Assembly: GCF_009931435.1 (NCBI RefSeq)
Contig: NZ_CP043414.1
Direction: 5' to 3' (one strand)
Length of the DNA: 64,000 nucleotides
From: Escherichia coli
Lineage (GTDB): Bacteria; Pseudomonadota; Gammaproteobacteria; Enterobacterales; Enterobacteriaceae
Of this stretch, positions 22,504 to 24,764 are shown piece after piece; position 1 is the stretch's first letter; every line of letters starts with the position of its first letter. The notes beneath the pieces were generated by a model that did not search any database, was not told the origin of the DNA, and was given only the letters and a program-made list of their open reading frames with translations. A program made the position numbers and the translations under genes.

Positions 22504-22533
22504 AAAGCCGACTTTAAGAGTCGGCTTTTTTTT
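22504..22533 (+). terminator. Intrinsic terminator/attenuator between upp and uraA
   Basis: AAAGCCGACT / AGTCGGCTTT stem followed by T8. Confidence 0.7.
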
Positions 22534-22573
22534 GAGTAAAGCGCCTATAACACATAATACAGAGGAATATACT

Positions 22574-23863
22574 ATGACGCGCCGTGCTATCGGGGTGAGT
22601 GAAAGACCGCCACTTTTACAAACAATCCCGCTTAGTTTGCAACATTTGTTCGCCATGTTTGGTGCAACCGTCCTGGTGCCCGTCTTATTTCATATTAACC
22701 CGGCGACTGTACTGTTATTCAATGGTATCGGGACGCTGCTGTATCTCTTCATCTGTAAAGGGAAAATCCCGGCTTATCTTGGTTCCAGCTTTGCCTTTAT
22801 TTCACCGGTATTGTTACTGTTGCCGTTAGGGTATGAAGTCGCGCTGGGCGGCTTTATTATGTGCGGCGTGCTGTTCTGCCTGGTTTCTTTTATCGTGAAG
22901 AAAGCGGGGACCGGCTGGCTGGACGTGCTGTTTCCACCTGCGGCAATGGGCGCAATCGTTGCCGTCATCGGTCTGGAGTTGGCGGGCGTAGCTGCCGGTA
23001 TGGCAGGTTTACTCCCGGCTGAAGGGCAAACGCCAGACTCCAAAACCATCATCATCTCCATTACCACGCTGGCAGTCACGGTTTTAGGTTCCGTGCTGTT
23101 TCGTGGTTTCCTGGCAATTATCCCGATTTTAATTGGCGTGCTGGTGGGCTACGCGCTCTCTTTCGCAATGGGAATTGTCGATACTACGCCGATTATTAAT
23201 GCTCACTGGTTTGCGCTGCCAACTCTCTATACGCCGCGCTTCGAGTGGTTTGCCATTCTGACTATTCTGCCAGCGGCGTTAGTGGTTATTGCCGAACACG
23301 TAGGGCACCTGGTGGTAACGGCTAATATCGTCAAAAAAGATCTGCTGCGCGATCCAGGTCTGCACCGTTCGATGTTTGCTAACGGCTTGTCGACCGTGAT
23401 CTCCGGCTTCTTTGGCTCCACGCCAAATACTACCTACGGGGAAAACATTGGCGTGATGGCGATCACCCGTGTTTACAGTACCTGGGTTATCGGCGGGGCG
23501 GCGATTTTCGCTATCCTGCTTTCCTGCGTCGGTAAACTGGCTGCTGCTATCCAGATGATCCCATTGCCGGTGATGGGCGGCGTTTCGCTGCTGCTTTATG
23601 GTGTTATCGGTGCTTCCGGTATTCGTGTTTTGATCGAATCGAAAGTGGATTACAACAAAGCACAGAACCTGATCCTGACTTCTGTCATTTTGATCATCGG
23701 TGTCAGTGGCGCGAAGGTAAACATCGGCGCGGCGGAGCTGAAAGGTATGGCGCTGGCGACCATCGTCGGTATCGGCTTAAGTTTGATCTTCAAACTGATT
23801 AGTGTGCTGCGCCCTGAAGAAGTGGTGCTGGACGCAGAAGACGCGGATATAACAGACAAATAA
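22574..23863 (+). CDS. uraA: Uracil:H+ symporter
   Basis: 429 aa from [21 protein letters not shown]... Confidence 0.96.
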
Positions 23864-23957
23864 TGTACCGACCGGGCAGTGTTGCTGCCCGGTTCAAACA
23901 TCATGGGATTCTGTGGTAAACTTCTCGCGATTTTGTGAAATCCTGGTTGAGGTATCT

Positions 23958-24659
23958 CTGAACACACCGGCACAGCTCTCTTTGCCACTTTATCTTCCTG
24001 ACGACGAAACCTTTGCAAGTTTCTGGCCGGGGGATAACTCCTCTTTACTGGCCGCGCTGCAAAACGTGCTGCGTCAGGAACATAGCGGTTACATCTATCT
24101 CTGGGCACGCGAAGGCGCGGGGCGCAGCCATCTGCTGCACGCGGCTTGCGCGGAATTGTCGCAGCGTGGCGATGCGGTGGGCTATGTCCCGCTGGATAAA
24201 CGCACCTGGTTTGTTCCGGAAGTGCTCGACGGTATGGAGCATTTGTCGCTGGTCTGTATCGACAACATTGAGTGTATTGCAGGCGATGAGTTGTGGGAGA
24301 TGGCGATTTTCGATCTCTACAATCGAATTCTGGAATCGGGTAAAACACGGTTGTTAATCACCGGCGATCGTCCACCGCGGCAGTTGAATCTGGGATTACC
24401 GGATCTCGCGTCGCGACTCGACTGGGGGCAGATCTACAAATTGCAGCCTCTTTCTGATGAAGATAAGTTGCAGGCGCTACAGTTACGCGCGCGTTTGCGT
24501 GGTTTTGAACTGCCGGAAGATGTGGGGCGTTTCTTGCTGAAGCGGCTCGACAGAGAGATGCGCACGTTATTTATGACGTTGGATCAGTTGGATCGTGCGT
24601 CGATTACCGCGCAACGTAAGCTGACCATTCCGTTTGTGAAAGAAATTCTGAAACTGTAG
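23958..24659 (+). CDS. hda: DnaA-inactivating protein Hda (RIDA)
   Basis: 233 aa if initiated at the CTG at 23958 ([19 protein letters not shown]...), as is established for K-12 hda. Confidence 0.85.
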
Positions 24660-24669
24660 ACAAGACGTT

Positions 24670-24740
24670 TATCGTCGGATGCGCGCCCATCGTATTCGTA
24701 GGCCGGATAAGACGCGGCAAGCGTCGTATCCGGCAACGTG
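24670..24740. repeat. REP element(s)
   Basis: GTAGGCCGGATAAGACGCGGCAAGCGTCGTATCCGGCAACG-type palindromic unit in the convergent hda/yfgD gap. Confidence 0.7.
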
Positions 24741-24764
24741 ACTTAACTCGCGAAAGGGCGCATA

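Follow-up and report, generated by a model that had tools for sequence, protein, structure and literature searches.

In Escherichia coli, the classic case of dosage control through a weak start codon is infC, which encodes IF3 and begins with AUU. This AUU operates within an autoregulatory loop, in which IF3 selects against the start codon of its own gene. The hda gene, which encodes the DnaA inactivator Hda, resembles infC in that a conserved noncanonical start, here CUG, would limit or tune the amount made of a protein whose dosage matters. It differs in that we know of no such start-codon feedback, described or demonstrated, for hda. The initiator tRNA also accepts CUG, despite a mismatch at the first codon position, but does so inefficiently. 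According to the 2008 abstract of Su'etsugu and coworkers, hda reportedly uses a CUG downstream of the annotated start, a choice that is said possibly to restrict Hda to ~100 molecules per cell. Reporter assays place CUG initiation at ~1–2% of that from AUG (Hecht et al., preprint 10.1101/063800), and initiation complexes on CUG are less stable (PMC11497404). EcoGene 3.0 reports the CTG start of hda as directly demonstrated (PMC3531124, citing Su'etsugu et al., 2008, J Biol Chem 283:36118). EcoGene 3.0 also lists yfjD as the second K-12 gene whose CTG start is verified; it is unrelated, and its CTG was predicted from sequence conservation and a ribosome-binding site (PMC3531124). In both genes the CTG replaced a previously annotated canonical start; in yfjD the rejected start lies downstream (TTG at codon 9), whereas in hda it lies upstream. 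The CTG start of hda is, in short, ordinary, being already known and curated since 2008. Beyond EcoGene 3.0, a full-text literature search for Hda together with CUG or CTG turned up nothing but primers or papers on HDACs, which are unrelated, and the literature search yielded neither usable ribosome-profiling evidence for the hda start nor a usable report on the hda promoter or transcription start site.

The window analyzed here is a 64,000-nt stretch of E. coli DNA. It carries the same gene with the same CUG start as E. coli K-12 (b2496), to which it is base-identical from the uraA stop through hda codon 19. The CTG in question occupies positions 23958–23960 on the plus strand, directly 5′ of the conserved Hda N-terminus in the window's reading frame, and is followed by the codons AAC ACA CCG GCA CAG CTC TCT TTG CCA CTT TAT CTT CCT GAC GAC. 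From it, the hda coding sequence extends over 23958–24659 (+), comprising 233 codons and the stop codon TAG. The longest hda open reading frame opens farther upstream, at GTG 23913–23915 (+), which was originally annotated as the start and gives 248 residues. This GTG lies in frame, 15 codons 5′ of the CTG, and is the sole ATG, GTG, or TTG between the in-frame stop TAA 23850 and CTG 23958; the intervening frame reads GTA AAC TTC TCG CGA TTT TGT GAA ATC CTG GTT GAG GTA TCT.

A first-pass annotation, made from the sequence alone, had proposed that hda initiates at CTG 23958, had placed both this codon and the upstream GTG exactly, and had matched it to a noncanonical start reported for K-12 hda. 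Comparison with the curated K-12 gene, the check it suggested, agrees on each point. The hda of K-12 MG1655 (b2496, NP_416991.2; 2618075..2618776, minus strand) is 702 nt long with CTG as its first codon, and upstream of that codon its sequence matches the window exactly. PGAP gives strains 2017-02-2CC and PG20180063 a 702-nt hda CDS (WP_001307333.1, 233 aa) whose first base corresponds to window position 23958, again a CTG, and K-12-like strains encode the same Hda protein as the window, WP_001307333.1. The surrounding kilobase has a match in 5,425 of 5,426 complete E. coli genomes, every time in the arrangement uraA–hda. Over this kilobase the window is 99.8% identical to strain 2017-02-2CC and ~98.5% identical to K-12, with no difference of substance from the latter. 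Downstream, the spacer between hda and arsC (yfgD), at 24660–24764, measures 105 nt here and in strain 2017-02-2CC, whereas K-12-like strains have 137 nt; most E. coli matches end at query position 987 because of this ~32-nt indel.

The best explanation of the locus as a whole, and one in which confidence is very high, is that hda starts at CUG 23958, positioned by a Shine–Dalgarno (SD) sequence, that the region around GTG 23913 most likely serves as leader and promoter, and that the weak start probably effects dosage control. Its demonstrated elements are the gene model, the pattern of conservation, and the SD, whereas the promoter assignment and the limitation of dosage are inferred. A lone CTG codon is unremarkable. 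CTG 23958 goes beyond chance because it follows the sole strong SD match, at a spacing of 4 nt, and because neither of the two varies from species to species.

To locate the SD, positions 23900–23995 were scanned for pairing with the 3′ end of 16S rRNA, expressed as the anti-SD duplex energy. A single site at or below −5 kcal/mol emerged, GAGGT at 23949–23953 (+), with −6.9 kcal/mol, which sits 4 nt 5′ of the CTG, a functional spacing. Pairing at the alternative starts was −4.0 kcal/mol or weaker: a weak −4.0 kcal/mol at GTG 23913, −1.7 kcal/mol at TTG 23982, and +0.3 kcal/mol at an additional in-frame CTG at 23943, the last two lacking an SD. Mechanistically, the initiator fMet-tRNA would read CUG 23958–23960, onto which the strong, invariant GAGGT would position the ribosome, partly offsetting the weak first-position C:U mismatch. 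Coupling a near-optimal SD to a weak codon would then give a low and steady output of Hda, the low copy number arising because CUG initiates at so small a fraction of the AUG rate. The persistence of the CTG suggests that such dosage control, holding this regulator of replication licensing at low copy number, is likely the role of the CUG start. The predicted hda leader RNA folds weakly (−10 to −12 kcal/mol), leaving the SD and CTG neither clearly open nor clearly sequestered, and no strong structure that might add further control was found in the folded predicted leader.

The protein itself points to the same codon. The window protein scores 476.6 bits against the NCBIfam model NF005982 (cut-off 268) and 281.4 bits against TIGR03420 (cut-off 194.8), and Pfam assigns it the Bac_DnaA and Hda_lid domains. 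These Hda family models begin at residue 14 (NF005982) or 21 (TIGR03420) of the open reading frame, such that its residues 1–13 are never covered. Window Hda is 100% identical to residues 21–253 of PDB 5X06 chain E, the natural part of which begins MNTPAQ. In the crystal-structure paper, full-length Hda is 26.6 kDa, with the sequence 6-QLSLPL-11 and residues Arg153 and Ser57 (PMC5397184). The CTG product has a calculated mass of 26,632 Da and carries QLSLPL at residues 6–11, R at 153, and S at 57; the GTG product would amount to 28.4 kDa. The published residue numbers and mass fit only the CTG product and therefore support the CTG start. By this numbering (PMC5397184), the β-clamp-binding motif QLSLPL (codons 6–11, 23973–23990 (+)), an instance of the pattern QL[SP]LPL, is placed at the extreme N-terminus of the protein. 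The product further possesses an AAA+ domain, in which Arg153 is the arginine finger of Box VII, and a lid domain. Judging from its identity to K-12 Hda, it would be expected to have RIDA activity, stimulating DnaA-ATP hydrolysis with the DNA-loaded clamp.

Conservation was assessed across 80 hda loci from ~30 Enterobacteriaceae genera, drawn from a scan of species-representative genomes, plus four further loci from Yersinia, Erwinia, Proteus, and Dickeya, which represent four other families. The unique sets comprised 87 hda coding sequences, spanning five Enterobacterales families, and 76 Enterobacteriaceae upstream sequences. Codon 1 is CTG in all 87 coding sequences. Among the 27 positions that are Leu throughout, it alone is invariant, the other 26 each using three to six Leu codons. 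More broadly, among 138 positions with an invariant residue and a degenerate codon, codons 1 (CTG) and 4 (CCG) alone show no variation. The invariance of this CTG amid Leu positions that do vary therefore reflects a constraint at the nucleotide level, beyond Leu coding and unlike that on an internal Leu codon. The SD is equally constant: GAGGT is invariant in all 76 Enterobacteriaceae upstream sequences and reads GAGGTG in the four other families. The never-varying CCG (Pro) of codon 4, at 23967–23969 in the window, may represent a constraint on the initiation region just 3′ of the weak start.

The start was never upgraded to ATG, GTG, or TTG in the 87 unique hda genes, though a single base change would suffice. 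The lack of any C-to-A, -G, or -T change at the first position, even though it would create a stronger functional start, argues for selection against higher expression. On balance, we lean slightly toward the view that the CTG and its invariant, strong SD are ancient and actively maintained in at least five Enterobacterales families, under long-term selection for weak initiation that caps Hda dosage.

What, then, is the region upstream of the CTG? The uraA gene ends with TAA at 23861–23863 (+), and is followed at 23872–23892 (+) by a hairpin, CCGGGCAG-TGTTG-CTGCCCGG and then TTCAAAC, presumably the uraA terminator with a weak T-tract. The hairpin has a perfect 8-bp GC-rich stem, and its 3′ arm, GCCCGG, together with the following TTC, is almost invariant among the 76 unique upstream sequences. 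It lacks a T-run and was not scored by the intrinsic terminator scan; read-through from uraA into hda is therefore possible. At the other end of uraA, the open reading frame list places the start at TTG 22532 (443 aa; region 22532–22576), versus an internal ATG in RefSeq (429 aa, MTRRAIGV...). Directly adjoining the hairpin is the hexamer TTCAAA (23893–23898 (+)), whose leading TTC is conserved in the alignment. It resembles a −35 element and is spaced 18 bp 5′ of a −10-like hexamer; it falls below the promoter scan threshold. The latter hexamer belongs to TGgTAAACT (23914–23922 (+)), reminiscent of an extended −10 element of the TGnTATAAT type. This segment forms a conserved unit, TGnTA[A/G/C]ACT, in all 76 unique sequences, and related forms recur in Yersinia, Erwinia, Proteus, and Dickeya (TGTGgTAAGCT, TGTGaTAAACT, TGTGtTAGAAT, and TATGcTAAACT). 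The column of the old GTG holds GTG or ATG in 75 of the 76, though it is usually out of frame.

Together, TGnTAAACT and the −35-like TTCAAA look like an hda promoter of the extended −10 type, as we infer from their sequence and conservation. The two hexamers each match four of six consensus positions. A consensus promoter and terminator scan of 23700–24100 called no sites, and the proposal is therefore built on conservation. GTG 23913 would most likely supply the “TG” of the extended −10, and the 45 nt between GTG and CTG would constitute promoter and untranslated leader. The predicted transcription start, at ~23929–23931, falls 3′ of the old GTG, which would therefore be absent from mRNA made from the hda promoter. 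The first-pass annotation had objected to an upstream start on the grounds that it overlaps the uraA terminator region. This is not so, as GTG 23913 lies 21 nt 3′ of the hairpin; its placement inside the conserved TGnTAAACT element is the better argument against it. A candidate DnaA box in GATTTTGTGAAATCC was also considered and rejected, as it matched only seven of nine positions by eye and was not conserved in the alignment.

These upstream sequences bear on the choice among the possible starts. If hda started solely at GTG 23913, as originally annotated, the CTG would be an internal Leu codon of a 248-aa protein, and the 45 nt before it would be coding. The variability by codon position, 0.06/0.01/0.21 after the CTG, bears the signature of coding, versus a flat 0.19/0.20/0.19 in the 45 nt before. 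Third-position variation begins directly after the CTG, the stretch upstream differs in length by 1–4 nt, and conservation of the protein begins at the CTG with no upstream coding constraint. The first-pass annotation had described the 15 added residues as nonconserved, and the comparative data confirm this, marking them as noncoding. The spacing between the GTG column and the CTG is anywhere from 43 to 49 nt, which puts the GTG out of the hda frame in 65 of the 76 unique sequences. In 46 of 83 loci, the interval from the closest in-frame stop to the CTG contains no ATG, GTG, or TTG at all; in many of these that stop lies a mere 5–7 codons 5′ of the CTG, and many species have in-frame stops 5–15 codons away. 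It is true that GTG 23913 opens the longest open reading frame, no canonical start intervening between it and the in-frame stop, that its column almost always holds GTG or ATG, and that callers forbidding CTG have put the 248-aa form into thousands of assemblies (P0002, 3510 member sequences). However, an internal Leu codon would not stay CTG in every gene while the 26 other all-Leu positions vary, the SD match of the GTG is weak, and neither the published numbering nor the mass fits a 248-aa, 28.4-kDa protein. RefSeq does not use this GTG, and EcoGene rejects it likewise (PMC3531124). The frame-shifted and stop-containing orthologs effectively refute GTG 23913 as the sole start, leaving this reading extremely unlikely.

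A subtler variant would retain the CTG for the main product in E. coli and add a minor 248-aa isoform, initiated at GTG 23913 on transcripts reading through from uraA. Such transcripts, made plausible by a hairpin that has no T-tract and went unscored as a terminator, could carry the GTG, which is in frame in E. coli; in the Escherichia examples (the window, K-12, and E. albertii) it is in frame with no intervening stop. Against this variant, which is very unlikely, conservation of the extension already breaks down inside Escherichia: L004, one of the species representatives and labelled E. coli, bears a 1-nt insertion that shifts the GTG extension out of frame. This allele is absent from the complete E. 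coli genome collection, where the best match was 96.3%, and L004 is therefore a divergent lineage. Moreover, the weak SD applies here as well, 15 added residues would bury the N-terminal clamp-binding motif, and no report of a long Hda isoform was found in the literature searched. Two nearer codons, CTG 23943, five codons 5′ of the start, and TTG 23982 (Leu9), are both in frame in the window, and TTG is a canonical start codon, but initiation at either is vanishingly improbable. Besides lacking an SD, CTG 23943 is conserved in neither frame nor identity, and TTG 23982 is replaced by CTG or TTA in 40 of the 87 coding sequences. Initiation at TTG 23982 would also remove Q6–S8 from the clamp-binding motif, which Hda needs in order to function (PMC5397184).

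Initiation at CTG 23958, the reading thus preferred, also bears on how hda is annotated in other families. In the Yersinia, Erwinia, Proteus, and Dickeya loci (L085–L088, positions 401–409 in each), hda is called from a GTG within the SD itself, in the context GAGGTG CTT CTG AAx. Such calls yield 235-aa proteins beginning “MLLNTPAQ,” with the CTG remaining two codons later. The 235-aa hda annotations outside Enterobacteriaceae thus probably carry two spurious residues, and the same probably holds for the 235-position NCBIfam model NF005982, whose alignment begins at residue 14 of the open reading frame and which would likewise begin at the GTG in the SD. For some species, such as Hafnia paralvei and Izhakiella australiensis, RefSeq contains Hda in a 233-aa as well as a 235-aa version.

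What is added here to the established CTG start is small: the invariance of CTG and SD across the order, the resemblance of the rejected GTG to promoter sequence, and a likely overextension of the 235-aa annotations by two residues. For this window, the sole significance is the correct annotation of hda. Callers that forbid CTG arrive at 248 aa here and at 235 aa in the other families, and the residues so added obscure the clamp-binding motif at the N-terminus; the conservation analysis could help correct hda start-site annotations in many genomes.
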